NCBI GenBank assembly: GCA_001823065.1
Contig: MHTJ01000003.1
Location: forward strand, 9,844 to 73,843
DNA length: 64,000 nt
DNA from: Candidatus Vogelbacteria bacterium RIFOXYD1_FULL_44_32
Lineage (GTDB): Bacteria > Patescibacteriota > Minisyncoccia > Phycocordibacterales > XYD1-FULL-46-19
Direction: 5' to 3'
Part shown: piece by piece, positions 35,181 to 58,881 of the stretch
Layout: every line of letters starts with the position of its first letter
How positions within the stretch are numbered: position 1 is the first letter of the stretch
Notes under the pieces: generated by a model
What the model was told of the DNA's origin: nothing
The model's database searches: none
The model's input: the letters and a program-made list of their open reading frames with translations, nothing else
Position numbers and translations under genes: made by a program

Positions 35181-37691
35181 ATGAGTATTTTCAAGGCCAT
35201 ATTTGGTGACAGTGACGCCCGTGAGGTCAAAGCTATCCAGCCCGTGATTACTAAAATCAATGCGTTGGAAGCGACTTTTGCGGTCCTGTCGCCCGAAGAA
35301 TTAAAAAATAAGACTGCCGAGTTTAAACAGCGCGTCGCTGCTGGAGAAACTCTCGAACAAATTTTACCCGAAGCTTTTGCAGCGGTACGCGAAGCTTCAA
35401 AGCGGACTTTAGGCCAGCGCCATTTTGATGTGCAGTTGGTGGGCGGAGTGGTGCTGGCTCGGGGTGGTATTGCCGAAATGCGCACTGGTGAAGGAAAAAC
35501 TTTAGTGGCGACCGCACCGGTTTATTTACATGCTTTAACAGGTAAGGGGGCGCATGTGGTGACGGTCAACGATTATTTGGCGCGTCGTGATGCCGCGTGG
35601 ATGGGACAAATTTATAACGCCCTTGGTTTTTCGGTGGGGATTGTCAATCAACATGAGAGTTTTCTTTATGACCCCACTCATATTGAAAAAGATCACGAAC
35701 GTGATGATGTTGCTTCTTATAAAGTCGTTTATGAATTTTTAAAACCTTGCGCTCGTCGTGATGCCTACTATGCTGACATTACTTACGGCACCAACAATGC
35801 TTTTGGTTTTGATTATTTACGTGACTATTTGGCGCACAGTGACCAGCAGTTGTCGCAACGGCGAGCCAAAGACGAGCGTCACCACTTTGCGATTGTGGAC
35901 GAGGTGGATTCAATTTTAATCGACGAATCGCGCACCCCACTTATTATTGCTGGTCCCGCCGCCGAAGCGGAAAATCTTTATGGCACTTTTGCTAGTCTGG
36001 TGGCTAGTTTTAAAGAAGATGAAGATTACACCGCTGACCATAAATTTCACGCGATCACGGTCACTGAGCGTGGTATCGAAAAAACCGAGCAAGCGCTAAA
36101 GGTGGATAATATTTATACTGACAAGGGTATCAAATATGTTCATCATTTGGAAACAGCTATTCGGGCCAAGGCCCTCTACGAACGGGACAAGGCCTATGTG
36201 GTGAAAGATGGCGAGGTTATTATTGTCGATGAATTTACGGGGCGTCTTCAACCAGGGCGACGCTGGTCCGAGGGTTTACATCAGGCCGTCGAGGCCAAAG
36301 AGGGGGTGGCTATAAAAGAGGAGTCGCGCACTTATGGTTCCGTGACACTCCAAAACTATTTTCGCTTGTATCAAAAAATAGCGGGGATGACTGGGACGGC
36401 CAAAACCTCGGCCGAAGAATTTGAAAAAGTTTATGGTCTCGATGTTATTTCTATTCCCACCAACCAAACCCCAACCCGTCTCGACCATCCTGATTTTATT
36501 TTTCAAACCGAAACGGGCAAATTTAAAGCGATTGCGAAAAGGGTGCGCGATCTGTACGATAAGGGCCAGCCGGTCTTGATCGGTACGGTATCAATTGAAA
36601 AAAATGAATTATTGTCAGCTTATCTGAAAAAAGAGGGAATACCACACGAAATATTAAATGCTAAAAATCATGAGCGAGAAGGGGAAATTATTGCCGCCGC
36701 GGGCAAGAAAAAGGGGGTAGTCATTGCCACCAATATGGCTGGGCGCGGAGTGGATATTAAGCTGGGGGGGATTTCGGCCACCGCCGAAGAAATGGCCGAG
36801 GTTAAAAATCTCGGTGGTTTGTTTGTGCTCGGTACCGAGCGTCACGAAGCCCGCCGGATCGACAACCAGCTCCGCGGGCGCTCGGGGCGCCAAGGTGACC
36901 CAGGGGCGACCCAGTTTTATATTTCCCTCGAAGACTCGCTGATGAAAGTTTTTGCTTCGGACCGTGTCAAAAATATGATGGGGCGTTTTGGTATACCCGA
37001 AGACGAGCCCATTCAAAATAGTATTGTGTCGCGAGCAATTGAAAGCGCCCAGTCACGGATTGAAGGGATGAACTTTGATACCCGTAAACATCTGTTGGAA
37101 TATGATGATGTGGTCAATTTTCAACGCGTGACCATGTATGGCCGGCGCGAAGATGTGCTTTTGGGAGGTAATGCTGAAATTGCCGATTTTCTGGAGCGGG
37201 CCACGATTGAGCTTGGCCTCTCGGTCGAGGAACAGCGCGCGGTGAGCGACCAATTTACCTCGAAGGTGGCTTCACTTGGTCAGGAATATGTCGGAGCAGT
37301 CCGCGAGCTTATTTTGCAGGTGATTGATATGTATTGGATGCAACACCTCGAAGCGGTGGAATATATGAAAGGGTCGGTGCGCTTGCGCGCCTATGGTCAA
37401 CGCGACCCACTGGTGGAGTTTAAGCGTGAGGGTTTGAAAATGTTTAAGGATTTAGAAGCGTCCATTTTTTCGGATGTTATTCGTTTATTTCCCAATGTGG
37501 GCACCGATTTGAAACCACCCGAAGTAGTAAATTTACAGGAAGTCCATACCGATATTACCGCTTTACCAGGCACCGACCCAATTAATGCTGGCGATGTTCC
37601 CACTCCAACCACTAGTGAGCCAAAAATCGGTCGCAATGACCCTTGCCCGTGTGGCTCGGGTAAAAAATATAAAAAGTGTCATGGGCAGTAA
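35181..37691 (+). CDS. secA: preprotein translocase ATPase SecA
   Basis: Walker [16 protein letters not shown]-like motor motifs, N-terminus [17 protein letters not shown], and the C-terminal zinc finger [14 protein letters not shown]. Confidence 0.95.
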
Positions 37692-38241: not shown

Positions 38242-38337
38242 ACCATTCTTTTAAAAATCACCCTATGTGGTGAGTAAAATATAATAAAAAGTGCTTGTTA
38301 TAAGTCAGTAAAAAATAAAAAAGTAATAAATCATATC

Positions 38338-38366
38338 AAAAAATCGCGCCCGGCGCGATTTTTTGT
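38338..38366 (+). terminator. intrinsic terminator (AAAAATCGCGCC/GGCGCGATTTTTT)
   Basis: A GC palindrome hairpin followed by T6. Confidence 0.6.
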
Positions 38367-38407: not shown

Positions 38408-38452
38408 CCCCACCAAAAATACACCATAATTTATGGTGTATTTTTGGTGGGG
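38408..38452. promoter_or_regulatory. 45-nt perfect palindrome (22-bp arms, CCCCACCAAAAATACACCATAA-T-TTATGGTGTATTTTTGGTGGGG) upstream of the giant protein gene
   Basis: Read directly from the sequence. It lies 74 nt upstream of the 38526 start. Confidence 0.6.
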
Positions 38453-38525: not shown

Positions 38526-41500
38526 ATGCCAACAAGTTACGGAAAACTGTTACAGACAATCCGTTATTATGTGTTGGTTTTGAAGCAAATAATTTTTAAA
38601 TTTGCTTTTTCAAAGTGGATTAGCAAAAAAAATATCCTAGGAAAAATAAGGGTATTTGGAGTAGTGGTGATTATCCTAGCCAATATTTTTACTCCACTTA
38701 CCGCCAGTGCCGCTATTAATCAGCAAATAAACTATCAGGGTAAACTTACTACTACGGCTGGCGCCGCGGTCACCGACGCTACCCGTAGTACTGTCTTTTC
38801 ACTTTACACCGCTTCGTCTGGGGGCACCGCTATTTGGACCGAAACTCAAAGTGTCTCCACGACTGATGGCTTGTTTAGCGTGATGCTCGGTTCAGTGACT
38901 TCGCTAGCGACAGTCAATTTCAATCAAACTCTCTATCTGGGGGTCAATGTGGCCAGTGACGGCGAAATGTCACCCCGCAAAATTATCGGCGCTGTGCCCG
39001 CTTCTTTTTATTCTAGCGATTCCGATAAACTCGATGGTTTGACCGCCTCTGATTTTCTGTATGCCACTACCACCAATGCCACCGCCACTATTACCTCTTT
39101 AAATGTTGGCAATTCTACGACCACCAACGCGACCACTACCAGTTTATATGTTGGGTCAACTGCCACCGTGGCTGGATCTTTGGTTGTATCAGGAACAGCC
39201 ACTAGTACTTTTAATGGAGGTATAAATCTTCTTGGGACTAATGCTACTTTGACTATTGGCAACAATCTGGCTGAAAATAATTATCTTAAATTCAACTATT
39301 CGTCGACGGGTGGTGGTGATGTGACCGGCCAGCTCGAAGGGGTAGACCAAATGTCCTATGGGTTTAACAATCGGGCTTACTACGGCGGCACGGCGGGCGT
39401 AGCCAGCGGTCGGACTTTGTATATTCTTGATCGCGTGGCCGGGCTCAATCGGGGTGGCTTCAACGCCTCTGGCGATTTCTATGTTGGCCCATCCACTACC
39501 AACTATGGTCTCAATGTCAAAGGTCCCAATTCTGGCGTTACCGGGCTCACTGTTTTGGGAAACGGATATGTGGGCATTGGTACTAGTACTCCAGATACAG
39601 ATTTGGCGGTTTTTGCTAGTACCGGCACCACTACTTTAAAGATTCATAATTCTGGCACCGATTTAAACGCTGTCTTGCAATTTATGGAAGATACAGTGGG
39701 ACAGGGAATGGAACTTCTCTACGATGCCAATGGTAATGATCTAACCATTCGGGGTATTACTGAACAAACACCAATTTTTACGGCGGAACGTACTGGCCGA
39801 GTGGGTATCGGCAAGGCCAACCCTTCAACTACATTGGATATTGTGGGTACTGCTTCCTCAACTGGTTTACAAGTAAATGGCAGTGGAACAATCGCGGGGA
39901 GTTTGACTTTGGGTACTGCCCTAGGTGTTGCCAGTGGTGGTACCGGCCTTACTTCCTACACTTTGGGTGATGTTATTTATGCTTCTGGTACAGGGACACT
40001 GGCTGGCACTTCTACCGCCAATTTGAAAACCACTTTAAGTTTGAACAATGTCGAAAACACGGCCCTGTCCACTTGGGCGGGAACAACCAATTTGACAACG
40101 TTAGGGACAATCGCCACCGGCCTCTGGCATGGCACGGCAATTGAAGATGCTTACATTACCAAAACTGGTGCTTGGACTGGTACCTTTGATGGTCAAGAAG
40201 GTAGTTATTATTTAGACGCCACGAACCTCACCAACTTTGGTACACCGTTCTACACCTATTTCTCCGCCACCACCACCGATGCTCTGACTCAAGGTTCAAC
40301 CAACAAATATTACGCCGACTCTTTGGTTAATGCTTACATTCATGCTTCATCAACTATCCCTAAAACTTACACCGCCAACACTTTCACCGGCGCCAATACT
40401 TTCAACAGCACTTTCACTATCGGCTCCTTCACTGGCCCATTGCAAGCCGCCAACGGCGTCGTCTCCGCCACCACTTCCATCGGCGTCGTCTACGGTGGCA
40501 CCGGTCTCACTTCCGCTCCGGCCTACGGCAACCTGCTGGTTGGTAATGCTTCCAGTGGCTACACTTTGACGGCGACTTCGTCACTCAACCTCGCTATCTC
40601 CGACACTGTTGGTACCTTGAGTGTGGCCAAAGGGGGGACGGGCGCCACCACATTCGGTCAAGGTTGGATATATTCCGATGGTGGCACTGGTGCGCTCGCT
40701 GCTTCAACTTCACCAACGGTCAATTATATTACCGCTACCTCGACCATCGCCACTTCCACCTTTGCTGGTGGCCTCGCGGTGGAGACGAGTGGTTTGGTAT
40801 ATGACTATTCGACCAATAAGGTTGGTATCGGTACAGATAGTCCCACCAATGAACTGCACGTAAATGGCAATGCCCGCATTGGTGAGCTCGGCTTTATAGC
40901 CAACTGGCCGGTGGTATGGTTCAACGCCTACTATGACGATACTGACGCACGGGCAGAGTTTACCACCAGCGATTCTGCTTTTGCTTTGTATCATGATCAA
41001 ACCAATGACTTGTTCAAGATTTTATATAACGCAGTAGGCACGGCTGGAAACCAGGTGAGCTCATCAAACGTTGCATTGTCAGTAAATACATCTGGCAATG
41101 TCGGCATTGGTTCTACCACCCCTGAGGCAAAACTCACCGTTCAAAATACTGGCACGGGTAACTCGTTCATCGTCGAAGACCAAGCCGACGATACCTCACC
41201 TTTTGTCATCAATGCCAGTGGCAATGTGGGTATTGGCATGACTGCTCCCGGCTATAGCCTAGAGGTTTCCAATGCGATTGTCTCATCTTTGGCTAATGGT
41301 TCTGGTCACCCTTATATCGGTATTCGGTCTTCTGGAGCTTCAATGTGGTATTTGTCTGACAATGACACAACCAATGACTTTCATCTCGGTACATCTCTCA
41401 ATGATACAAAGTTTGTCGTTGACTTTTCAACAGGCAACGTCGGCATCGGCGACTCCACTCCCGACTATACCCTCGATGTCACCGGCAACGCTCGATTCAC

Positions 41501-44500
41501 TTCGCTTGTTGATGCTGCCAACTTTGTCGCCACTTCCACCACCGCCACCTCCACCTTTGCTGGTGGCCTCGCGGTGGAGACGAGTGGGTTGGTGTATGAC
41601 TACTCCACCAATTTTGTGGGTATCGGTACAGCTTCGCCATCTCAAGAATTGGAAGTTATCTCCTCGGCAAGTAATAGTAATGTTTTTGTTGTTTCCGATT
41701 CCGCGGGTACTGATACCAGTATTTTCCGTATCTTTGAAGTATCTGGTGGCGGTGGGCTGGCCTCACTTTATAGTGCGTCTGATGCAGAAGCGATTAGGCT
41801 AAGTGCCACCGGTGACTCGTGGATTAACACCGACAATGATCTGGGTATTGGCACCACTTCACCCCTGGCTCGCCTCGATGTCGTCGGCTCTCTATCTGGT
41901 ACTACACCGCTATTTCAAGTTTCTAGTCTGGGCGCGAGCTATGCCACCACGACTCGAATGATAATTGATTCGAGTGGTAATGTGGGGATCGGTTCATCCG
42001 CTCCTTCTGAATTGCTCACTATTCAAGGAGCAAGTGGTGGTATATCGGGTGTTACAGCCGATACGGTGAGAGTTATGATCCATGATACCTCTAATGGTGG
42101 AACTTGGGATATTGTAAATCCGTTTGCTTCTTTTGCTTTTTCGCGGGCTGACACTAGCGGCGAAGGCGCTGGAATAGCCGCGGAAATTGGAGCCGTCCAT
42201 AATGTCTCTAGCACTGGTGGTAATGTGCGAATAGGATTTTTTACCGCTCCAACAACCTCTGGGACTATGTTGGAAAGAATGAGTATTATGGATGCTGGTG
42301 AGGTGGGTATAGGTACCACTACTCCAAGTGCTAAATTGACTGTTACATCAGATACCGCCAGTGATACTTTTGCTTCTTTGTATCTTGGAGCTATTGAAAC
42401 AGCCAGTGACACCTATCTGACTGGTCTATTTAAATCTGGTACAACCAATGGAGCTCCAGATGTGCGGATAGTAGACAAGGATACCAGTCAAGCTCGCGCT
42501 GCTTTACAGATTCAAGGTAATAATGGAAGTACCGAAATCGCTTTCTTTGGGGCCGGTGGTAATGTCGGCATCGGCACCACTACTCCCCAAAATATTTTGA
42601 CAGTAAATAGTGCTTACAATGTGAGCAATGATTCATTGGATGTGAGAATTAACAATACGACCGATAGTTATAATCGGGGGGCGGGTATCCTTTTCTCTGA
42701 CGCCTATCTTACTACTGGGCGGATAATGGGTATGCGTAGTCGGGGGGCATCACTAGCTGCCGACCCACTTTATGGCAGTATGTTTTTGGATTATCGCAGT
42801 AATTTTCATCTATTTAATAATTTAGCTGGTACGACGGAATTTATGCGGATTACTTCAGCGGGCAACATGGGGATTGGCACTACCACACCCCTTGCCCGTC
42901 TTGATGTTGTCGGCTCTCTATCCGGCACTACCCCACTCTTCCAAGTTTCCAGTCTGGGGGCCAGCTATGCTACGAGCACTAAATTTATAATTGATTCCAG
43001 TGGTAATGTCGGCATCGGTACTACCACCCCCGGCACTTCACTTGGTGTCGCGGGGGCTGGAGTCTTCGGGGCCAATGTAACAGCCAGTGTTTTCAATGCG
43101 ACCTCCACCACCGCTACCTCCACTTTTGCGGGGGGTTTGGCGGTGGAGACAAGCGGGTTGGTGTATGACTATTCAACCAATTTTGTGGGAATTGGAACCG
43201 CTAATCCTCATGGAGCTTTAGAAGTCGATGGTAGTATATATACAAGTCGTGAAAATAGAGGCATCTTCTTTAATAATTTTTTCAATGGTACTAATTACAC
43301 AACCATTAATAACGGAGAATCTGGCGTTTTAAATTTCGGTTCTTCTGGGGAGTTAAATTATAGTACCGCCGCTTCTCGCTCAGCTGGGGCAACTGGTTCG
43401 CAGACAAATATATTTACCGTTCTTAATACTGGGAATTTTGGTATCGGCACCTCCACTCCCGGTACCCAACTTGGTGTCGCTGGCGCGGGTGTCTTTGGTA
43501 CTTATGTCAATGCCAGCATATTTAATGCGACTTCTACAACCGCCACCTCCACCTTTGCTGGTGGGCTGGCAGTAGAAACCAATGGACTGGTTTACGACTA
43601 CTCCACAAATTTTGTGGGGGTTGGGACGGCTGCCCCTCAAACAAAATTCAACGTTAATACAGCTAGTGCTTCTCTAAGTTGGAATGGTATGTTTAGAAAT
43701 ACGACTCATCAGTCGGCTGTTGGTCCTGGAGTGGGAGTAAAGTTTCAGCTGGGTGGTGCCGACACTCCTTCTGAATTGCAAAAATGGGCGGGTATTGCCG
43801 GGGTCTCAGAAGTAGGCACTTATGAACAAACAGTCGCTCTAGCCTTTTATACTCGTTTGGAAGCTAGTGCGGCTGATGCGACTGAAAAAATGAGAATTAC
43901 AGGATCGGGCAATGTCGGCGTGGGTACCACCACCCCCTTAGCTCAACTCACCGCTTCGTCTACTAGTAAGATTGGTCTTATTATTGATCAGCGTGGAACT
44001 TCTGACATTGCTCAATTTCAAGATGCTGGTACTTCAATTTTTGTGATTAAAGATGGTGGCAATGTCGGTATCGGTACCACTACCCCGGGGTCGCTTTTGT
44101 CTATCGGCAACACCGGCACCGGGCCTATCAACCTGTCCGCTACCGCCACTTCCACCTTTGGTTTTGGCATCAACCTCCGCGGCGGTTGTTTCTCGATTAA
44201 TGATTCCTGTCTCGCCAGCGGTGGGTCGGGGACCCCGGTGGGTAGTAATGGAAATATTCAGTTTAATAATTCCGGTTCTTTTGGTGGGGAAAATGACTTA
44301 AACTGGAATTCTACTTTGGACATCTTACAAGTTGCAACATCTACTGGTGGTCAGATACATGTCGGATATATAAATAACAGTAATATCACAGGTACAGCAG
44401 CCGCTAATACCTATATATCGTCCGGCCATAGTTTTCTTTCAAACGGAACAAATGCGGCAACTATCTATCTTGCGGTTGGAGGCGCCGACACTTCGATTGG

Positions 44501-45899
44501 GGTTGGCCAAGGAGGAGATGGTGGAGTTGTAAATATGGTTCAGGGGGGTAGTAGTAGTGATACTAACGGTGCTGATGGCACAGTCAACATTGGTCTATCA
44601 ACCGGTAACAAAAATGCCACCGTCAATGTTTATGGGACCATCAATACTATGTTTAGAAATACTGCTACCACTAATGGCGTCTGCCATTCTGGTACTGATC
44701 TAGATACTACTGACACAACTAATACCTACTCTTTAGTTGCCTGTTCGGCGGCACCGGGTGACATCGCCGAATTTTATCCTGTATCTGACGAGGATATAGA
44801 AGCTGGCGATATTGTTGCACCATCACTAGATGAATTTTTGTATAGTGCCGAAGGTAGTGATCCTTATACTGGAGTTGTTAAATCTCTAGGCACTCAAGAT
44901 GTTTCAATAATGGACAAGGCTACTAAAGAGACGGGTTTTGTTGGGGTTGTATCTACTGGTCCATTCCAGACTTTTGGTAAGGATATTTTGAAAGCTAGAG
45001 GCAAAGACAAATCTCGAGCTATTGCCCTAGTTGGTCGGGTGCCAGTAAAAGTAAATGGCGAAGGGGGAAATATAAAGCCCGGTGACCGCATTACTATTTC
45101 ATCCGAACCAGGCATTGGGATGAAGGCTACTACCACTGGTATGACTTTGGGTGTGGCTCTCAATTCTTTTGCTGGCGAAAGTGTCAGTGATACTGGCGAA
45201 GTTATGGTATTTATAAATATGTCTTACGCCAAGATTTCCGATAGTGTCAGTGACGGTGATATTACTGAAGCTTTGTGGCAGATAGACAACACAACTGGAG
45301 ATATCAAAGCTCTAGCCTCGCTTGATTTAGGTGGTAAATCACTAAAAAACATTTCTTCACTTTCTAGTATTACTGGTAAATGGAGTATTAGTGAAGATGG
45401 CAAGCTGGTTGTTGACGAAATAGAAACCAACAAGCTGACAGTCAAAAATGGGATTACGACCCAAGATAAAACCACTGGTGATTTTTATTGTATATATATA
45501 GACAATGGCACTCTTGAAACTGAACAAGGTAGGTGTGAAGATTTGGTTGTAGAAGTAGTGGCTGAACCAGAGCCTGAGCCAGAACCACCGGCCGGTGATA
45601 GCGGTACTGGTGGCGAAACAGGAGACGGAGACGGTGATGGTGACGCTGGTGGTGATATCGGGGGCGAAGAAAATTCCAGTGGTACAACAGAAGAGGGTGG
45701 AAGCACAAGCGGTTCTGCTGGAGAAGAATCGACAGGAGACGAGGAGGCTACTACTGGAGGAGAAACTGGTGGTGGGACAGACCCCGGCGCAAGTGAATCG
45801 GATGTAGGAACTTCTGAAAGTGGAGAGCCATCAGTCGAGTCGGGTGGCGATAGTCAGACCGGTGATTCGAGTGGTGGGGAAACTACTAGTGGTGTGTAA
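38526..45899 (+). CDS. giant (2457 aa) secreted/surface fibre-like protein with Thr/Ser/Gly-rich beta-repeat arrays and an acidic low-complexity C-terminus
   Basis: It has an N-terminal hydrophobic anchor or signal. There are at least 4 copies of ATSTFAGGLAVETSGLVYDYSTN(F/K)VGIGT, many (S/G)GNVGIGTTTP...L(T/D)V motifs resembling phage tail-fibre-like repeats, 2 copies of a ~45-aa LARLDVVGSLSGTTPLFQVSSLGASYAT block, and a C-terminal EPEPEPEPPAGDSGTGGETGDGDGDGD tail. Confidence 0.8.
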   Translation: MPTSYGKLLQTIRYYVLVLKQIIFKFAFSKWISKKNILGKIRVFGVVVIILANIFTPLTASAAINQQINYQGKLTTTAGAAVTDATRSTVFSLYTASSGGTAIWTETQSVSTTDGLFSVMLGSVTSLATVNFNQTLYLGVNVASDGEMSPRKIIGAVPASFYSSDSDKLDGLTASDFLYATTTNATATITSLNVGNSTTTNATTTSLYVGSTATVAGSLVVSGTATSTFNGGINLLGTNATLTIGNNLAENNYLKFNYSSTGGGDVTGQLEGVDQMSYGFNNRAYYGGTAGVASGRTLYILDRVAGLNRGGFNASGDFYVGPSTTNYGLNVKGPNSGVTGLTVLGNGYVGIGTSTPDTDLAVFASTGTTTLKIHNSGTDLNAVLQFMEDTVGQGMELLYDANGNDLTIRGITEQTPIFTAERTGRVGIGKANPSTTLDIVGTASSTGLQVNGSGTIAGSLTLGTALGVASGGTGLTSYTLGDVIYASGTGTLAGTSTANLKTTLSLNNVENTALSTWAGTTNLTTLGTIATGLWHGTAIEDAYITKTGAWTGTFDGQEGSYYLDATNLTNFGTPFYTYFSATTTDALTQGSTNKYYADSLVNAYIHASSTIPKTYTANTFTGANTFNSTFTIGSFTGPLQAANGVVSATTSIGVVYGGTGLTSAPAYGNLLVGNASSGYTLTATSSLNLAISDTVGTLSVAKGGTGATTFGQGWIYSDGGTGALAASTSPTVNYITATSTIATSTFAGGLAVETSGLVYDYSTNKVGIGTDSPTNELHVNGNARIGELGFIANWPVVWFNAYYDDTDARAEFTTSDSAFALYHDQTNDLFKILYNAVGTAGNQVSSSNVALSVNTSGNVGIGSTTPEAKLTVQNTGTGNSFIVEDQADDTSPFVINASGNVGIGMTAPGYSLEVSNAIVSSLANGSGHPYIGIRSSGASMWYLSDNDTTNDFHLGTSLNDTKFVVDFSTGNVGIGDSTPDYTLDVTGNARFTSLVDAANFVATSTTATSTFAGGLAVETSGLVYDYSTNFVGIGTASPSQELEVISSASNSNVFVVSDSAGTDTSIFRIFEVSGGGGLASLYSASDAEAIRLSATGDSWINTDNDLGIGTTSPLARLDVVGSLSGTTPLFQVSSLGASYATTTRMIIDSSGNVGIGSSAPSELLTIQGASGGISGVTADTVRVMIHDTSNGGTWDIVNPFASFAFSRADTSGEGAGIAAEIGAVHNVSSTGGNVRIGFFTAPTTSGTMLERMSIMDAGEVGIGTTTPSAKLTVTSDTASDTFASLYLGAIETASDTYLTGLFKSGTTNGAPDVRIVDKDTSQARAALQIQGNNGSTEIAFFGAGGNVGIGTTTPQNILTVNSAYNVSNDSLDVRINNTTDSYNRGAGILFSDAYLTTGRIMGMRSRGASLAADPLYGSMFLDYRSNFHLFNNLAGTTEFMRITSAGNMGIGTTTPLARLDVVGSLSGTTPLFQVSSLGASYATSTKFIIDSSGNVGIGTTTPGTSLGVAGAGVFGANVTASVFNATSTTATSTFAGGLAVETSGLVYDYSTNFVGIGTANPHGALEVDGSIYTSRENRGIFFNNFFNGTNYTTINNGESGVLNFGSSGELNYSTAASRSAGATGSQTNIFTVLNTGNFGIGTSTPGTQLGVAGAGVFGTYVNASIFNATSTTATSTFAGGLAVETNGLVYDYSTNFVGVGTAAPQTKFNVNTASASLSWNGMFRNTTHQSAVGPGVGVKFQLGGADTPSELQKWAGIAGVSEVGTYEQTVALAFYTRLEASAADATEKMRITGSGNVGVGTTTPLAQLTASSTSKIGLIIDQRGTSDIAQFQDAGTSIFVIKDGGNVGIGTTTPGSLLSIGNTGTGPINLSATATSTFGFGINLRGGCFSINDSCLASGGSGTPVGSNGNIQFNNSGSFGGENDLNWNSTLDILQVATSTGGQIHVGYINNSNITGTAAANTYISSGHSFLSNGTNAATIYLAVGGADTSIGVGQGGDGGVVNMVQGGSSSDTNGADGTVNIGLSTGNKNATVNVYGTINTMFRNTATTNGVCHSGTDLDTTDTTNTYSLVACSAAPGDIAEFYPVSDEDIEAGDIVAPSLDEFLYSAEGSDPYTGVVKSLGTQDVSIMDKATKETGFVGVVSTGPFQTFGKDILKARGKDKSRAIALVGRVPVKVNGEGGNIKPGDRITISSEPGIGMKATTTGMTLGVALNSFAGESVSDTGEVMVFINMSYAKISDSVSDGDITEALWQIDNTTGDIKALASLDLGGKSLKNISSLSSITGKWSISEDGKLVVDEIETNKLTVKNGITTQDKTTGDFYCIYIDNGTLETEQGRCEDLVVEVVAEPEPEPEPPAGDSGTGGETGDGDGDGDAGGDIGGEENSSGTTEEGGSTSGSAGEESTGDEEATTGGETGGGTDPGASESDVGTSESGEPSVESGGDSQTGDSSGGETTSGV

Positions 45900-45998
45900 T
45901 CAAAAATTAAAAATTTTTTCTAAACGAAAAAGTGCCCGCCCAACGAGTGAGCGGACACAGAGGGTTCCAGGGAGAGAGACTAGTTCTGCCTTAAAACC

Positions 45999-46672: not shown

Positions 46673-47545
46673 CTAGAACAAAGCCGTGAGGATTGCGTTC
46701 AGACGGGAAGCGGGACCCCGTCCGGTTGGGTACTTTTCAAACGAAACGTGTCCGTCCATGTACAGGATGTTGGCGCCACCAGGAACGTGGTTGAAATCGT
46801 CGGCTTGGGCGTCGACGATATCCCAGAGGACGTAAACATTGCTCTGGGCCGCTGAGCTTGCCGCCGCGTTGTTGATGTCGGTAATGAAAAATCGCTCAAT
46901 GCCTTCGCGCAAGCGCAAGCCTTTGGTGGCTGCTCCACCCGCGTTGGTCCAAGACAAGTCGTTATCCGCGGCCGTTGCGTTTCCGCCACCGACAGCGGTG
47001 GCCACTCCAACTAAGGCGCCGACAAATCCGGCGTCGATATAGGTGCCAACGGCGTTGGCTAGGGTCATGGCACCGTCGTTGAAGTTGACCCCGGGTACTC
47101 CAATCAGGTCTTGGAAGGCCCAACCGGAATACACCAACGAAAGCGAATCTAATTCACAGGGGGCAAACGTCCCGCTGGGGCTGTTTCCCACCTGCCACCG
47201 ACCACCGGTGAAGCGGTCGATGCCGTCGGAATCGGACGGGCAGACAAACACCTTCAAATCAGCGATGTACTCGGGGAACACTGAGTCCCCGCGCACGATG
47301 AAGTCAAACCCGGGCGACTCGCAAAAGTCCCCGTCCCTCGTCTTCGCGGTTGGGAACTTCTCGCCCTTGCTCTCGTTCGCGTACATCTTGAGCACTATTC
47401 CGATCTGCTTGAGATTGTTGGCGCAGGACGCCCGACGGGCCGCTTCGCGCGCCCGGGCCAGTGCCGGCAACAGAATGGCCGCGAGGATGCCAATGATGGC
47501 GATGACCACCAACAGTTCGATCAGGGTAAATCCCTTTTTCTTCAT
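46673..47545 (-). CDS. DUF1559 / H-X9-DG protein with type IV pilin-like (prepilin-type) N-terminal cleavage/methylation domain
   Basis: N-terminus [49 protein letters not shown] and C-terminus [15 protein letters not shown]. This family is hugely expanded in Planctomycetota/Verrucomicrobiota. It has ~60% GC and a GAAGGAG SD. Confidence 0.85.
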
Positions 47546-49026: not shown

Positions 49027-51204
49027 GTGTATATGTTCAAAAGTATCCTAAAGACCAATAAAACAAAAATCTTCACTCTACTCCTAGTAGCGGTGGTAGT
49101 TTTTGGTGCCTTTGGTTTACCCCTGACCACTTATGCCGACGACGGTAGTGCTACCGCTTCAGTGGATTCAACCTCGACTGCGGACACTGGTGATACTGGT
49201 AGTACAGACACCGGCAGTGCGGATGCTAGTACCAGCGAAAGTGCTTCTGGTTCAGCTGATACTACTGCCACCGGCTCAACCGAAGAGCCAACGGGCACTG
49301 GAGAGGGTGTATCGGACACTGACCAGAGTGTATCGGACACAGATTCAACCACCACTTCCGGTGAGGGTGAGACTGGTACCAGTGACCAGAATACTGGCGA
49401 TACTCAAACTGGGGATAACTCTACAGGGGAAGAAGAAACCAGTGATACTGGCACGACCACTACTCCGATCTTGCCTGATACAGAAAACACTGATACTGGC
49501 ACGACTACGGAGCCGACCTTACCTGGAGATAATGGGACCACGACGGTTCCTGTGCTTCCTGAAGGGGGTGATACTGGTACGACCACCGTGGCGACTACTA
49601 CCGAGCCAGTGACTGGTGGTGAAGACCAAGATGAACTTCCTTTAGTAGAGGGATATCTTCCTCCGGCGGAAGATGTGTCAGGTGAATATGATATGACTAC
49701 ATCCGAGGACGATGGGTTGCCAGCGGTAGCTGAAGATGTTTCCGCTGAATACAACTTCACCACTCTATCGGACACTCTGCCAGCGGTGGAAGAGGAGGTC
49801 TCCCTCGAATACAATTTTAATACACTTGAATCAGGAGGGGGAACTCTAGCTGAAGATGTTTCCGCTGAGTACCACTTCACGACTCTATCGGACAATAATC
49901 CTCCAGTTGACGAGGAGTATTCCTTGGAGTACCACTTCACCACTCTATCGGACACAAATCCTCCAGTGGATGAGGAACACTCCAATGAATATTTCTTTAC
50001 GACATTGTCCGATACAAATCCTTCTAGCGAGGAGTTTTCTAATGAATACAATTTTACCACCGACGATGATGGTGGTACTAATCCACCAAATGAGGAATAT
50101 TCTAATGAGTACCAATTTGGAACTACTGGTGGGGGTGGAACAGAAACGGAAGAAGAATATTCCAATGAGTACAGCTTTACCACCGACGATGATGGTGGTA
50201 CTAATCCACCAAATGAGGAATATTCTAACGAGTACCAATTTGGAACTACTGGTGGGGGTGGAACAGAAACGGAAGAAGAATATTCCAATGAGTACAGCTT
50301 TACTACCGATAACGGTGGCTGTACCGAAAATTGTGGTGGCGGAGGTGGAGGCGGTGGTGGCGGAGGCGGGCATAATCACAAAAAGAATAAAGTTTTGCCT
50401 AGTCCGTGCATGCCACTACTCTTGAAATATATTCGCTTGGGGGCCAACAACGATCCGTATGAAGTTTACAAACTGCAGTGGTTCTTGCGGACTTTTGAAA
50501 ATATGGAAATACCTTTGTCCGGAGTGTATGACCAGACCACATATGAAGCAGTAAAAATATTCCAAGCGCGCCATGCGACAGATGTGCTCCACAGCTGGGG
50601 TATTACTGAGCCGACCGGCTATGTCTATATCACCACCCAACTGATGGTAAATTATATTTACTGTGATATTGACGAGCCACTGCGTCTAGAATTATTGCTC
50701 GAGGAACAAACGGGCACTGGTTTTGGTTATACTAAATTACCAAGTAAAGGTGATGGTCTAGACTATCTGGTCTATCCGCCAAAAACCGAGCGTACGGTGT
50801 TTGAAGGTATCACTCTTGATTTACCCGCCGAAGCAGACAAAAAAGTTGGTAATATTTTTCAACTAGCCACCGCCGGTTTTATGGATTGGCTTCAGGGTAC
50901 CGAAGGTAAGTATTGGTGGTGGTTGATTATTTTGCCGTTGGTAGTGGTTGCTGGTTATCTATATCGGCGATTGAAAGTTGAACAAACTGACAAAGAATTA
51001 GCCCAAGAGGCGCAGGCCACAATTTTGGAAGCCGACCGCGAAATGACCGCTGAACCAATTGTCGGAGCCGAGGCGGAGACACCACATAAAGAAGATGTGC
51101 CCGATGAAATTATTGCCGAATACAATGCGGCTAATGGCGGACACCAAGCTGGCCAAGAAGCCATAGTTTTGCCAGGCGAGAGTCTAGAGGACCGAGAGAG
51201 TTAA
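49027..51204 (+). CDS. secreted acidic repeat protein with a PG_binding_1-like peptidoglycan-binding domain, a single TM helix and a cytoplasmic tail
   Basis: It has a signal peptide, a Thr/Asp/Glu/Gly-rich region with ~19-aa repeats (EEYSNEYxFTTLSDTNPP), and a G12 tract. The PG-binding region reads YEVYKLQWFL...SGVYDQTTYEAVKIFQARH and the TM segment is WWWLIILPLVVVAGYLY. Confidence 0.75.
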   Translation: MYMFKSILKTNKTKIFTLLLVAVVVFGAFGLPLTTYADDGSATASVDSTSTADTGDTGSTDTGSADASTSESASGSADTTATGSTEEPTGTGEGVSDTDQSVSDTDSTTTSGEGETGTSDQNTGDTQTGDNSTGEEETSDTGTTTTPILPDTENTDTGTTTEPTLPGDNGTTTVPVLPEGGDTGTTTVATTTEPVTGGEDQDELPLVEGYLPPAEDVSGEYDMTTSEDDGLPAVAEDVSAEYNFTTLSDTLPAVEEEVSLEYNFNTLESGGGTLAEDVSAEYHFTTLSDNNPPVDEEYSLEYHFTTLSDTNPPVDEEHSNEYFFTTLSDTNPSSEEFSNEYNFTTDDDGGTNPPNEEYSNEYQFGTTGGGGTETEEEYSNEYSFTTDDDGGTNPPNEEYSNEYQFGTTGGGGTETEEEYSNEYSFTTDNGGCTENCGGGGGGGGGGGGHNHKKNKVLPSPCMPLLLKYIRLGANNDPYEVYKLQWFLRTFENMEIPLSGVYDQTTYEAVKIFQARHATDVLHSWGITEPTGYVYITTQLMVNYIYCDIDEPLRLELLLEEQTGTGFGYTKLPSKGDGLDYLVYPPKTERTVFEGITLDLPAEADKKVGNIFQLATAGFMDWLQGTEGKYWWWLIILPLVVVAGYLYRRLKVEQTDKELAQEAQATILEADREMTAEPIVGAEAETPHKEDVPDEIIAEYNAANGGHQAGQEAIVLPGESLEDRES
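50050..50289 (+). repeat. 2 x 120-bp near-perfect tandem repeat inside the 49027 gene
   Basis: NEYNFTTDDDGGTNPPNEEYSNEYQFGTTGGGGTETEEEYS is encoded twice, with only 1-2 nt differences. Confidence 0.8.
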
Positions 51205-51285: not shown

Positions 51286-54200
51286 ATGGTGTCTAACCAC
51301 TCTAAGCGGTATAAAGGCCGATATTCATTTCTAACTTACATCAAGCCAGCTTTCCTAGTGCTGGCTTTTTTATTCTTTTTCCAATTAATCACGCCAGTCG
51401 CCCTGGCTCAAGACGGGACGGTGGAGGAATCATTGCCGCTTCCTCCGGCAGAGGAGCCAGCACCCGTTCTTCCGCCGGCCGGAGGTAGTATCAGCGACCC
51501 CGAAGCTCCAGCCGAACTGGCAGCAGTTGCGGAGGAAGACAACCTAGTCGCTTTGTCACTTACTGTCACCAGTCGTTCGCCGGTAGACTTAGGCAAGCCA
51601 CCAGTGGGAACGGGCTTTAAAATTTCGGCCGACACCTCGGACGGCTCGCTGGCATATGAGTTTCCCCTGACTCTCCCTCCTGGCCGCCAGGGTTTGGCCC
51701 CGGAGCTGTCTTTGCTCTATTCTAGCCGTCCTACTAGCGCTACCTCTTTATTTGGTTACGGTTGGACGTTGTCGATTCCTTTTATCGAACGAAAAAATCT
51801 TCATGGTTCGGATCGGCTGTACGAGGAGACAGATTTCACTTCTTCCTTAAGTGGTGACTTGGTGGCCTTAGGCGGCGAGACCTATCGCGCCAAAGTTGAT
51901 GAGGGGGAGTTTCTGGTTTATGTTTTCCGCGATAATGCTTGGACAGTGACAGACAAAAGCGGCATGGTCTACCGCTTCGGCCAGACCGCCGCCGCCCGTC
52001 AGGATGATGCTGATCATCCGACCCACGTCTACAAATGGATGCTCGAGGAAGTTCGCGATCTAAACGGAAATTATGTTACCTATCGTTATGCCAAAGATTC
52101 CAACCAAATTTATCCGGAATCAATAACTTATACTCACCATGCTGATACGGCTGGTCTATATTCAATACGCTTCATCAAAACTCCACGTGATTATCCCGTC
52201 ACCTCTTGGGCGGCAGGTTTTAAAGTTGTCACCAATCATATTATAAGTGAAATAGTTGTTGAAGTCGGAGGAGGGTGGACGAGGAAGTATTCTTTCGCCT
52301 ATACCCAGCGAGACAACCAGAGTCGGTCATTGCTAACCTCAATCATCGAATGGGGAAATGACGGTTCAAAAATCATCTCTTTACCACCGACCACCTTTAC
52401 TTATCAAGTATCAGCTAAGGCCTGGGTTGAAAACAGCCGTTGGACTTTGCCAGTGTCTCTTGTCGGAGACAACTACGAAGACACGGGCGCGCGAATTGCC
52501 GACATTAATGGCGATGCTTTACCCGATATTATAACTAATAATAATGGCTCCTTTCTTAACACTGGTTACGGTGACTGGGACAGAGCCGGCCCCGAGTGGA
52601 CCCTGCCTGTGGCGTTGACGAAACCAGATGTGGTCCACCCTGGAAGTATGTTGATTGACGTTAATGGTGATGGATTGATTGATATTGCCCAAAGTCGGGA
52701 TGGTGATGAGGACCCGGATATTGTCTATTTTAATACTGGCCACGGCTGGGTGACATCGTCGACCACGGTTCCGGTCTATTTTGCGACGCGAAACGGCAGT
52801 GATAACGGAGTCCGGGTTGCCGACATTAATGGCGACGGTCTGCCTGATTTGTTGCGTTTTCATGCTGGCGACGGCGCATTGGGTAATCGTGTTTATATCA
52901 ATAATGGTTCCGGCTGGAGCGAAGATCGGTCCTGGGTTTTACCGGAGCCGACCCTTGCCGGCGACGGCCAGACTGATTTGGGCACGCGTTTTGGCGACGT
53001 TAATGGTGATGGCCTAGTCGATATCCTTCGCAAAGATGAAAGCGTTAGTAAAGTCTATTTCAATACTGGTCACGGTTGGGAACTGGCCTCTGCTTGGGTT
53101 ATTACCGCCGAGGAATTTATGAACGACGGTGGTGATCGAGGCACGCGAGTTTATGATGTCAATAGTGACGGATTTGACGATCTTGTGAATAGTCAGGCGC
53201 CAGGTGATGTTGGTGTTTATCTCAATACGGGTAGTCCTTCTAACGACTGGACTTTAGACATGAGCTGGCGTATTCCTTTCAGGTTGGTTGATTATCTTCG
53301 CGACGGGGGCCGTTACGTTGATCCGGGAACGCGGTTGGTGGATTTAAACGCTGACGGACTCCTGGACATACTTCAGTCACGATCAAGTGGCCCGAACCAG
53401 GTTTATTTTCAAGCTGGCCCACAGCCTGATCTCCTTCAGAGTGTGACATTTAGTCGGGGCGGTGGGGCGAACATTACCTATCTCTCCAGCACCTTTTATC
53501 ATCCAAATGGTCTTGGTCGTCTCAATCAAAAGTTGCCGTTTCCGATGATAACGGTTAGTACGATTACCGAGCACGATGGCCTCGGCGGTAGTGCCACTAC
53601 CGAATATAGTTATAAAAATGGCGAATATTATCACGAGAACATTCTTGACCGAAAATTTGCCGGCTTTGGCCAAGTGGAAAAAACCGATGCCATGGGCAAT
53701 ATTACTAAAACCTATTTTCACCAAGGTAATGATTCTGATTCTGGTCGCGGGGAATTTGAAGATCATTTTAGTAAAATTGGGCGAATTTATCGAGTAGAAA
53801 AATATGATTCAGCTGGCAATTTATTGACCCAAGAAATTAGTCGGTGGGGGAGGGTGGCCTTGGCTGTCAGCGCTGGCCTTGATCGATCTTTTGTTCCATT
53901 GTTAAACAATATAAAAATGACTTACGATGGCGACAATAGTCACCGTGATGTGGCTGAAGCCTATACTTATGATAATTTTGGTAATTTAGTTCGGGCCGAA
54001 AATTATGGTGAAGTGGTGGCTAGTGACGATGGAAGTTTTAGTGATCTGGGTTCTGATAAAACAACCAAGATTTTGAGTTATGTCACAAACTCAACAACGG
54101 GCATATTGGGGTTAGTAAGGATGGAAGAATTGAGAAATAACAATGGAGCCAATGTGGCGGTCAAAAAATATTATTATGATAATCTTCCCATTGGGGCAGT

Positions 54201-57201: not shown

Positions 57202-57777
57202 ATGAAAAAATATTCATTCAAAAAAATAATTACTATTTTAGCTGTTGCACTAGTACTGGTAATTCTAATTTACTATATTCTTGGTGAGTTAGGAGGAAAT
57301 GCTTTCCGTATCCGAGCAGGTTTGTTGATTCATAAAGAAGAATTTAATGAATTTGTAGACAAGTTCCTTAATCAAAATTCTATAAAAAATATTCAAACGT
57401 CTGTTGGTTTCTTTAGCACTACGGAAAGTATAAATAGTTGTAGCCGCTATCCTGAAGAAGGCGATACACCTTGGACTTGTAGTGAGGGGGAATACCCAAA
57501 TATCGTATCAATAAATCTTGCGAGTATTAATGCAGTTTTAGAACATGAACATATCCCGAATGAAGAATACCAATACTTTGTTGATTTTATGGAAAGATAT
57601 AAATTCAACGGTGTGGGTAAGAATAATAATGACAGATCTGTCGAAATAGAAGATAAACTAAAAGGCTTGAGATATTACGAACAACAAAATTCAAGTAAGC
57701 TTACTGAAAATAATGAGTATCTTTTTGTTAAAAAAATTAATGAACATTGGTTTTACTATGTGAGAGATTGGAATTAG
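57202..57777 (+). CDS. putative cognate immunity protein for CT1 (N-terminal TM anchor)
   Basis: A small ORF 10 nt downstream of the toxin gene. Both position and size are typical of RHS immunity genes. Confidence 0.5.
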   Translation: MKKYSFKKIITILAVALVLVILIYYILGELGGNAFRIRAGLLIHKEEFNEFVDKFLNQNSIKNIQTSVGFFSTTESINSCSRYPEEGDTPWTCSEGEYPNIVSINLASINAVLEHEHIPNEEYQYFVDFMERYKFNGVGKNNNDRSVEIEDKLKGLRYYEQQNSSKLTENNEYLFVKKINEHWFYYVRDWN

Positions 57778-57789
57778 GATAAATAGAGA

Positions 57790-58881
57790 TTGAAATTTGA
57801 CAACGAAGGCCAACGAATCTCTCAAAAAACTGGAGCCAGTGCTAAACTATATATTAGCCCCAACTACGATTTGACTGGTTCGGTCATTGATAAACACATC
57901 TACGCTGGTGACCAGTTGGTTGCCACCCTGCGTACCCAAAACGGCACCACTAGCTCTTATTACACCCACTCTGACCACTTGTCTGGCACTAGTCTGGTGA
58001 CTGACCAAAATAGTGTGATTACTGAACTAATCGACTATTACCCCTACGGCGATATTCGCCTAGACCAAAAAACCTCCACCTACAATGAAAGCAAGAAATA
58101 TATTGGTCAGGAGTATGATGAGGCTACTGGTCTTTCTTATATGAATGCCCGTTATCAAAATGGAAAAACAAGTCGATTTTTGAGCCAGGATCCTGTGTTT
58201 TGGGAAATCGGAAATGAGGGAGAGATCAAGCAGAAGACGGGGCTCGGTCTACAAGAACTCCTAGCTGATCCTCAGCAATTTAACAGCTATTCTTACGCTC
58301 GGAACAATCCGATTACATATAAAGATCCAACAGGTAATCTTACTTGGGGGGCTCTCTTAAATCATCCTATTGGTAGCATACAAAGTGCGACAAATTGGGG
58401 ATTATTTTCTCTCGGCGGAAACATTATGAATAAACCATTTGCAGCCTCTCTTTTGAGACATTCAGCTTCCCTTAATCCTTCTGCAGAACTTAATATAGAT
58501 TCTGGTAATCAAAAGCAATATGGAAATCCAGTTGACCAAGTAATGCAGACAGATCAGTACAAGAACTACATTAAAGATACAATCCAGAGAGCGGAGAGCG
58601 GTAAGATGAAAAACTCAACTCACTTTGAGTTTGAAAATAGAAGTGATTTGTACTACGCCTTACATGGTGCAAATATTGAATCACAAATTACTCAAGAAAA
58701 TGGGGAATGGGTAGTAAATAGCACTGTGTCAGATAAATATGATTTTAATAAACCTAATCCTCAAACAGAGAAGGGTAGAGTAATTAAAATTCCTGCAAGT
58801 AATGCTTATAAAGCTCAAAGTAAGGGTATCCTAAGTAACTATAATGTAAAGATTAAAATTAGTGATAGAATTAAAAAATAA
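57790..58881 (+). CDS. orphan RHS C-terminal fragment (rhs core remnant plus alternative toxin domain CT2), TTG start
   Basis: 57796-58020 is ~90% identical at the DNA level to 56086-56310 of the main rhs gene. It retains DPQQFNSYSYARNNPITYKDPTG and then a novel ~185-aa C-terminus. Confidence 0.8.
   Translation: MKFDNEGQRISQKTGASAKLYISPNYDLTGSVIDKHIYAGDQLVATLRTQNGTTSSYYTHSDHLSGTSLVTDQNSVITELIDYYPYGDIRLDQKTSTYNESKKYIGQEYDEATGLSYMNARYQNGKTSRFLSQDPVFWEIGNEGEIKQKTGLGLQELLADPQQFNSYSYARNNPITYKDPTGNLTWGALLNHPIGSIQSATNWGLFSLGGNIMNKPFAASLLRHSASLNPSAELNIDSGNQKQYGNPVDQVMQTDQYKNYIKDTIQRAESGKMKNSTHFEFENRSDLYYALHGANIESQITQENGEWVVNSTVSDKYDFNKPNPQTEKGRVIKIPASNAYKAQSKGILSNYNVKIKISDRIKK

Follow-up and report, generated by a model that had tools for sequence, protein, structure and literature searches.

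Mosaic adhesive trimers (MATs) are fibre proteins that were first described as a family in the predator Bdellovibrio (Caulton et al. 2024, PMC10769870). The structural passages of that paper present the crystallised MATs as intertwined trimeric β-helices, whose modules are delimited by capping loops that follow the consensus V-G-(x)-G/N-π-x-x-P-x-x-x-L. For lineages other than Bdellovibrio, its survey table names Oligoflexia, the PVC group, Alphaproteobacteria, Deltaproteobacteria (Bradymonadaceae and Myxococcales), the FCB group and Omnitrophica; Patescibacteria are absent from that table, and no link between mosaic adhesive trimers and the candidate phyla radiation (CPR) is made in titles and abstracts of the literature under that name or in the MAT and CPR passages of the MAT paper and of one review. 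Here, we have analysed a 64,000-nucleotide stretch, hereafter the window, of the Patescibacteria member Candidatus Vogelbacteria bacterium RIFOXYD1_FULL_44_32 (GCA_001823065.1, contig MHTJ01000003.1, positions 9,844 to 73,843). We argue that the giant gene at 38526..45899 (+) likely encodes a secreted, very long MAT-type fibre that carries a phi29-type C-terminal module and takes part in host recognition.

As had been predicted from the letters of the DNA, the open reading frame (ORF) of this gene is intact: it starts with ATG and encodes 2,457 residues without an internal stop, and its product is 100% identical to the hypothetical protein A2571_01510 of Candidatus Vogelbacteria RIFOXYD1_FULL_44_32 (P0001). 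The body of the protein (residues 63-2345) is composed to 54% of G, S, T, A and N, in line with the rich content of these residues claimed in that original prediction.

That the body is a stalk of the MAT type came from its repeats. The motif NVGIGTTTP, or more generally GNVGIGTxxP, which we searched in the loose form [VMFLIY]-G-[IVLF]-[GN]-x(3-4)-P-x(2-4)-[LF], occurs 18 times in the fibre, as against a mean of 0.02 and a maximum of 1 in 2000 shuffles of the protein. Sixteen of the 18 copies, as repeats of the type ..GN-VGIG-TxxP-xxxL-xV.., lie in the modular stalk (residues 736-1890; 40731..44195, +), where they are found between residues 766 and 1847 at a spacing of 42-107 residues. Two further copies, at residues 349 and 426, fall in the proximal stalk (residues 196-735; 39111..40730, +), together with GGTG(L/A)T motifs and cassettes that are shared with assorted other fibres at 60-83% identity. 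A profile built from the alignment of all 18 repeat units was run against 177,635 PDB sequences and retrieved five crystal structures only, all of them MATs of Bdellovibrio bacteriovorus: 8OND (Bd2133) at an E-value of 1.4e-21, 8OML at 1.4e-11, 8OJN at 2.6e-10, 8OL4 at 2.1e-6 and 8ON4 at 7.5e-6; beyond these five, the best E-value was 0.93. Because the profile retrieves the MAT structures and the motif fits the published consensus, the NVGIGTTTP repeat is identified, at the level of sequence, as the MAT capping loop. Residues 736-1890 would accordingly be expected to form a trimeric β-helix.

Pfam gave zero matches on the whole 2,457-residue protein, phmmer of the whole fibre and of residues 195-760 against PDB sequences returned noise only, and residues 196-735 searched alone had no match in PDB or PHROG. 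The original prediction that the repeats resemble those of phage tail fibres holds, since PHROG searches of the whole fibre matched two tail-fibre families (9942 and 18345) at E-values of 5e-24 and 1e-19, at residues ~1135-1464, and the tail fibres of the cyanophages S-CBP1 and S-TIM5 and of several pelagiphages are 25-31% identical to the stalk; these phage fibres are more distant from it than the MAT structures. PHROG searches with the proximal stalk, the distal tip, the C-terminal module and its extension separately gave nothing significant.

When the fibre is compared with the MATs Bd2133, Bd3182, Bd1334, Bd2439, Bd2734 and Bd2740 of B. bacteriovorus (8OND, 8OML, 8OJN, 8OL4 and 8ON4), as far as the MAT passages of PMC10769870 describe them, the two share a signal peptide, a β-rich N-domain of ~130 residues, β-helix modules whose capping loops follow the same consensus, a variable C-terminus and mosaic evolution. 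The fibre differs in being 2.5 times longer (2457 vs ~1000 residues), in its 18 capping loops and in its divergent N-domain, and it belongs to a Patescibacteria bacterium, whereas Bdellovibrio is a diderm predator. The modules of the MAT crystal structures comprise ~95-130 residues, compared with the loop spacing of 42-107 residues here. The C-terminus is neither of the S74 type nor any of the TNF-like, C-type lectin, β-sandwich, FGE, collagen-like or intimin-like tips that those passages report for MATs, but consists of a gp12-type module, a conserved extension and an acidic tail. Membership of the fibre in the MAT superfamily, in the broad sense of that term, is in our judgement highly probable.

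The extreme N-terminus, which had been claimed as an anchor, reads by inspection of the translation as a long signal peptide of the Sec type (residues 1-62; 38526..38711, +), in which a K-rich n-region leads into the hydrophobic stretch VFGVVVIILANIF, followed by the cleavage site TASA|A (TASA|AINQQ). The conserved part of the N-domains of homologues begins directly after an A-A site. The domain that follows, a MAT-type N-terminal β-sandwich of ~130 residues (residues 63-195; 38712..39110, +), is the presumed cell-proximal anchor. This domain is homologous to the N-domain of the Bdellovibrio MATs: it matches the NCBIfam family NF053851 (Bdello_MAT_N) at an E-value of 2.4e-11 and 43.7 bits, which falls short of the 60 bits set as the curated cut-off of that model; of 26 N-domains of homologues, 25 match as well. 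Because of the score below the cut-off, the domain is best read as a divergent relative of the Bdellovibrio subfamily and not as a member. An AlphaFold2 (AF2) model from an alignment of 26 sequences is a β-sandwich with a predicted local distance difference test score (pLDDT) of 89-97 over residues ~65-154; Foldseek against the PDB returned generic Ig-like or β-sandwich likeness only (E>0.01) and no significant neighbour. In the passages of PMC10769870 on the MAT N-domain, that domain is also without a PDB homologue and is proposed to sit at the cell surface and bind an unknown surface element.

At the other end, the stalk is followed by a G/N/S/T-rich distal region ending in VCHSGTDLDTTDTTNTYSLVACSAAPG (residues 1891-2078; 44196..44759, +), which is found in the closest homologues only (coverage of 9-15 out of 119) and is modelled with low confidence in the AF2 monomer. 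Next comes a module that starts with D2079-I-A-E2082 (residues 2079-2240; 44760..45245, +), for which AF2, with an alignment of 20 sequences, gives a pLDDT of ~90 over residues 2079-2234. When this model was compared with the PDB by Foldseek, the preneck appendage protein gp12 of phage phi29 (Peptidase_G2, PF11962) was ranked first (3SUC, E-value 4e-4) and its C-terminal fragment second (3GQH, E-value 1e-3), with a template modelling (TM) score of 0.55 normalised to the target; phage capsid cement proteins and the base of the phi29 head fibre occupy the lower ranks. Against the viral models of BFVD, the first rank was again a 'Preneck appendage protein' (E-value 6.5e-11, target TM 0.63), among 41 viral matches at E<=1e-3, many of which are long tail-fibre-like proteins. 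At the sequence level, hhalign of the 20-sequence C-terminal alignment against gp12 residues 660-854 gave a probability of 71% and an E-value of 3.6e-5, and pairs D2079-I-A-E2082-F-Y with D692-F-A-E695-Y-F of gp12. D692 and E695 are reportedly the catalytic residues of gp12 (MEROPS G2; Xiang et al. 2009). All 20 sequences of the alignment have the D, A and E of the D-x-A-E motif, and the motif is present in 53 of the 120 listed proteins.

The likeness of the module to gp12 thus consists of the fold of residues 2079-2240, a nearly equal length (162 vs 163 residues), the leading D-x-A-E-[FY] that aligns with S691|D692..E695, and a later strand G-x-[IV]-[AP]-V-[KR]-[IV] that is common to both. 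However, the two are only ~12% identical, the fibre has no PF11962 match, and the residue before the Asp is Ser in gp12 but Gly in the fibre and variable in homologues. Moreover, 217 residues trail the module in the fibre, the protein is exported, and the part upstream of the module is a MAT stalk and not the enzymatic β-helix of gp12. On balance, we consider it probable that residues 2079-2240 are an intramolecular chaperone of the gp12 type (G2 type).

In gp12, the Ser ahead of the motif Asp is residue 691, and the crystallised C-terminal fragment of 163 residues spans residues 692-854, from which we take the self-cut of gp12 to be S691|D692. In agreement with this cut, mature gp12 is noted to end with that serine (PMC4690869). 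Since D2079 and E2082 align with D692 and E695, a cut in the fibre would be predicted at G2078|D2079; we regard the chances of self-cleavage as evenly balanced. If the cleavage is real, residues ~1891-2078 would become the mature distal tip, and the acidic tail would be shed.

A conserved C-terminal extension (residues 2241-2345; 45246..45560, +), containing GKWSISEDGKLV and TGDFYCIYIDNGTLETEQGRCE, follows the module. It is kept in homologues and is modelled by AF2 at a pLDDT of 50-83, and no family match was found for it, PHROGs included. The conserved C-terminal block as a whole, residues ~2050-2340, is common to ~50 of 119 homologues. Searches with the chaperone module alone found no match by tblastn in 50,697 phage genomes, and a word-indexed protein search returned 6 short fragments, none of them annotated by Pfam, that provide no bridge to PF11962.

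Two observations concern the same part of the protein. The fibre has six cysteines, all in its C-terminal quarter (residues 1888-2337; nt 44187-45539), which form three close pairs: 1888/1895 just upstream of the distal region, 2053/2073 inside it, and 2322/2337 in the extension. Homologues have equivalent pairs, e.g. GGLCVDNDGSC and KLCVGxxC, and these pairs are likely extracellular disulfides. Separately, a stand-alone G2-like module of 167 residues (P0233, at 5038-5541 of locus L084) starts five residues before its D-L-A-E, about where a cleaved fragment would begin, on a contig without recognisable phage genes.

The fibre can further be compared with two better-known classes of long fibres. 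Its stalk repeats resemble those of S74-type fibres and spikes, such as the K1F endosialidase, T5 pb1, fibres of cyanophages and pelagiphages and the Patescibacteria proteins with PF13884, and it has in common with them the assembly logic of a C-terminal intramolecular chaperone (PMC4690869). It differs in that Pfam finds no S74 domain (PF13884, SDxxxK motif) in it, though many homologues have one; the auto-chaperone of the fibre would belong to the second class known from such proteins. With the YadA family of trimeric autotransporters, to which the repeats had also been likened, the fibre has nothing in common beyond the broad notion of a long, trimeric fibre on the cell surface. Pfam finds no head, stalk or anchor domain of that family, the C-terminus is a hydrophilic, acidic tail of 112 residues without a membrane anchor instead of a β-barrel translocator, and the polarity is opposite, with the N-terminus of the fibre being cell-proximal. 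We therefore rejected a trimeric autotransporter adhesin.

The fibre is one of a large family in which both ends are kept and the middle is exchanged. A full-length search found >300 giant homologues of 1.3-4.3 thousand residues, and the named ones are nearly all from Patescibacteria. Capping loops are present in 119 of the 120 homologues listed (median 9, maximum 29) and the N-domain in ~90 of 119, while the C-terminal ends carry either S74 (PF13884, in ~45 of the 120; NCBI names some of these 'tail fiber domain-containing protein') or the G2-like module (53 of the 120). An exhaustive profile search with the N-domain gave 45,468 cluster representatives at E<=1e-3, of which 25,009 reached E<=1e-10 and 1,268 reached E<=1e-30. 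With ~25,000 representatives at E<=1e-10, the fibre is neither rare nor unique to the window. A scan of one genome per species gave at least 570 N-domain loci, of which the best 80 are almost all from Vogel-, Taylor- and Kaiserbacteria, Paceibacterota and other Patescibacteria. The relatives of the fibre number in the thousands and are mostly Patescibacteria. As a side observation, one locus (L033, JBLHQB010000014.1) from a metagenome-assembled genome of 'Patiriisocius sp.', binned as a flavobacterium, encodes an N-domain that shares 64% identity with those of the Patescibacteria type, which is either mis-binning or transfer between phyla.

The exchange of the middle is clearest in the positional homologue downstream of SecA (P0006) and the close homologue P0005, in which only residues ~16-224 and ~1995-2349 of the fibre align, at 51-56% identity, and the 1,770 residues between the aligned ends have no detectable counterpart. 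Short cassettes of 45-190 residues have counterparts in other fibres, with 60-83% identity, and these lie at unrelated positions. This is the pattern of the same chassis with exchanged parts that lies behind the MAT name. No further MAT paralogue was found by tblastn within the window.

How could such a protein work? We suggest that the signal peptide (residues 1-62) would direct the chain to Sec export and that the β-sandwich N-domain would retain the fibre at the cell envelope. The ~1,900 residues that follow would form an intertwined triple β-helix in which the 18 capping loops (GNVGIGTxxPxxxL) mark the borders of segments, and the stalk would be ~80 nm long, if scaled from the 135 residues per 60 Å given for Bd3182 in the passage of PMC10769870 on that fibre. 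The module at residues 2079-2240 could set the three chains in register and nucleate folding from the C-terminal end. It would then probably cut at G2078|D2079 via the invariant Asp and Glu and free the last 379 residues, tail included, so that residues ~1891-2078 are exposed as the distal tip and the extension with Cys 2322/2337 leaves with the chaperone. The mature fibre would recognise and attach to a surface, the most likely one being the host's, and internal duplications together with cassette exchange with paralogous fibres would diversify it.

Several points weigh against this scheme. To begin with the stalk, the AF2 monomer has low confidence everywhere outside the two globular domains; low confidence may be expected of an intertwined trimer, though it is no proof of one. 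The score of the N-domain under the curated cut-off has been mentioned. For the C-terminal module, the gp12-like fold is also found in proteins that do not cleave, namely the cement proteins of phage capsids and the base of the head fibre of phi29, and the hhalign link, at 71% probability, covers 56 columns and is a weak one at the level of sequence. PF11962, the autoproteolytic cleavage domain of intramolecular chaperones (Peptidase_G2), is not matched in the fibre itself even at E<=1, and in 4 of 20 homologue C-termini it is matched sub-threshold, from D-L-A-E-N-Y onward, with 15-21 bits vs a cut-off of 25. Cleavage of gp12 may reportedly depend on ATP, a need which, if real, would be unmet outside the cell since the fibre is exported. 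Furthermore, the module is not at the very C-terminus, as 217 residues follow it in the fibre and ~90-850 in homologues. The G2-like module is present twice, as a tandem, in one homologue (P0087), and in another (P0083) it is followed by a near-threshold Peptidase_S74 domain; with the trailing residues, these two argue against a simple terminal chaperone that is discarded. Finally, in the passages of PMC12428579 on MAT gene deletions, predation by Bdellovibrio was not measurably lowered, because of which the function of the MAT family itself is not firmly established.

Attachment is nonetheless plausible for the fibre. Patescibacteria are obligate ultra-small epibionts whose means of host recognition are largely unknown, and all cultivated members of Patescibacteria/CPR are epibionts (PMC12206443). 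The original prediction of an epibiont attachment organelle is supported as far as the source organism is concerned, while attachment itself stays at the level of plausibility. We lean slightly towards host adhesion as the function of the fibre.

It is conceivable, though improbable, that the fibre has a structural role instead, as part of a fibrous and possibly glycosylated layer that shapes the envelope, or that spaces or protects cells, without a defined ligand. Such a coat would fit the position of its T/S/N/G-rich stalk gene next to SecA and a ~34-kb glycan cluster, the fibrous surface reported for CPR cells and ascribed to giant proteins (PMC8080830), and the lack of a clear predation defect in the MAT deletions that PMC12428579 describes in its deletion passages. 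However, in the tip passages of PMC10769870, binding to specific glycans of the prey is described for the tip of one Bdellovibrio MAT, and the tips of MATs have folds with a known role in adhesion. Moreover, a mosaic middle that is replaced quickly and a lineage-specific tip suit a diversifying recognition protein and not a uniform coat.

We are more doubtful that the fibre acts as a tailspike-like enzyme, with a β-helix cleft that binds or cleaves a surface polysaccharide or the cell wall of the host and helps to reach the host membrane. The C-terminal module is of the type of gp12, itself an enzyme-bearing appendage, stalk modules of 84-107 residues have the length needed for clefts, and a passage of PMC10769870 notes tailspike-like clefts in MATs and likens Bd3182 to the O-antigen-binding P22 tailspike. 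Yet scans with Pfam, NCBIfam and PHROG detected no glycosidase, lyase or esterase family anywhere in the fibre, and a right-handed single-chain β-helix domain of the gp12 type was not found in it.

That a phage, prophage or tailocin tail-fibre gene lies in the chromosome by chance is very improbable in spite of the PHROG tail-fibre matches, the similarity to cyanophage and pelagiphage fibres and the phage-type chaperone module, since the Sec signal peptide and MAT N-domain are typical of cellular fibres, genes for a capsid, terminase, baseplate or integrase are absent from the 20 kb on either side of the gene, the window contains no tRNA or att-like feature, and the fibre genes of two related genomes likewise sit downstream of SecA. 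An Rfam scan of the window also returned nothing. On the same grounds, the suggestion that a phage-derived fibre had been domesticated here, in the sense of a recent prophage remnant, is not sustained, and we rejected a prophage tail fibre; the gene is a resident of the chromosome, probably for a cell-surface protein.

A secreted MAT-type fibre for host recognition would carry the MAT family beyond diderm predators into the CPR and add a second class of auto-chaperone, the G2 type, to cellular fibres. Host finding by CPR bacteria has to date been linked to type IV pili and to unnamed 'giant surface proteins' (PMC12206443; PMC11665869; PMC8080830), and the fibre is a concrete candidate for host recognition by such epibionts. 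The assignment groups a giant protein, and with it thousands of others, with a family for which crystal structures are available and in which glycan binding has been demonstrated for one member, and turns a 'hypothetical protein' into a testable model with an anchor, borders of stalk modules, a self-cut site and a binding tip of ~190 residues; this structural model is useful mainly for the large class of 'giant hypothetical proteins' of the CPR. MAT fibres (2024) and the auto-chaperones of phage fibres were already known. What is new, relative to the literature searched, is the occurrence and scale of MATs in Patescibacteria, the very long form, and the use of a G2-type instead of an S74-type chaperone in a cellular fibre.

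As a tentative and rather unlikely extension, the host range of Patescibacteria may be set mainly by a very large repertoire of MAT-type fibres that is shuffled quickly, with a G2 chaperone, in the branch studied here, that acts outside the cell without ATP and sheds a conserved Cys-containing domain and the acidic tail. If true, this repertoire would parallel the tail fibres of phages and the MATs of Bdellovibrio, and the shed fragment could keep the unfolded chain soluble in export or act as a released factor.

The acidic, low-complexity tail occupies residues 2346-2457 and the stop codon (45561..45899, +). In accordance with the claim of a C-terminal stretch of ~100 residues made of E, D, G, S and T with EPEPEPEP and GDGDGDGD runs, its 112 residues comprise G, E, S, T, D and P with few A, V, I, N and Q, contain both runs, lack K and R altogether and have a net charge of -30. 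The tails of homologues are comparable, being variable in composition and P/E/T/S/D-rich and without a hydrophobic anchor. An acidic region is also present, as claimed, in the protein encoded at 49027-51204 (+), a secreted protein of 725 residues with a D/T/G/S/E stretch, about ten repeats like 'EEYSNEYxFTT', a poly-Gly run, a hydrophobic helix near the C-terminus and a sub-threshold match to PG_binding_1 (21.3 bits vs a cut-off of 23). That both acidic regions decorate the same surface layer is not supported: the tail of the fibre may be lost from the mature protein because it lies downstream of the putative self-cleaving module, and we rejected a link between the two proteins, which have composition alone in common.

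The fibre gene contains repeats at the DNA level. A unit running from ATSTFAGGLAVET to YDYSTNxVGIGT, predicted as a 28-residue element recurring at least 4 times, is found in four copies of ~105 nt (40733..40836, 41528-41633, 43098-43207 and 43527-43631, +), in which ATSTFAGGLAVET starts at residues 742, 1007, 1530 and 1673 and YDYSTN at residues 759, 1024, 1547 and 1690; the DNA of the copies is 76-87.5% identical. A second unit, claimed to be 45 residues long and duplicated at ~80% DNA identity, is indeed duplicated at 80.9% identity by blastn, while its length is 152 nt or ~51 residues (41842..41993, residues 1106-1156, and 42868..43019, residues 1448-1498, both +). These internal DNA repeats point to recent duplication or gene conversion inside the gene.

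At 74 nt before the start codon lies a perfect inverted repeat with arms of 20 bp, CCCCACCAAAAATACACCAT / ATGGTGTATTTTTGGTGGGG, and a loop of 5 nt (38408..38452, +), which occurs only once in the window and could be a regulatory hairpin or a terminator. Just 5' of it, a terminator scan placed a GC-rich bidirectional terminator (38337-38365). The same scan found a GC-rich hairpin directly after the stop codon (45932..45958, no strand assigned), likely the terminator of the fibre gene. With hairpins on both flanks, the gene looks monocistronic.

Upstream, ~34 kb of mostly forward-strand genes (~1-34300) form a cluster for the biosynthesis of surface glycans, with a Polysacc_synt flippase, an AsnB-like amidotransferase, a methyltransferase, a UDP-GlcNAc 2-epimerase, a DegT aminotransferase, GT1/GT4 glycosyltransferases and a Wzy_C-TPR protein. 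SecA (35181-37691) and then a protein of 175 residues without assigned function lie between this cluster and the fibre. As a speculation, the T/S/N-rich fibre might be a glycosylation substrate of the adjacent cluster.

Downstream, the neighbours are a pilin-like protein, an NYN protein, the acidic, putative peptidoglycan-binding protein described above and an RHS/Tc-type toxin. The last (51286-57192, +) is a polymorphic toxin of 1,968 residues with SpvB, FG-GAP, TcdB_mid, RHS repeats, LysM and a terminal Ntox44; the two ORFs that follow it (57202-57777 and 57790-58881) have no family matches and may be immunity genes. The pilin-like protein (46673-47545, -) has an N-terminal methylation motif and DUF1559 (SBP_bac_10), a type typical of Planctomycetes. 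Its gene sits in a patch with a G+C content of 0.52, compared with 0.42-0.46 around it, and was possibly acquired horizontally.

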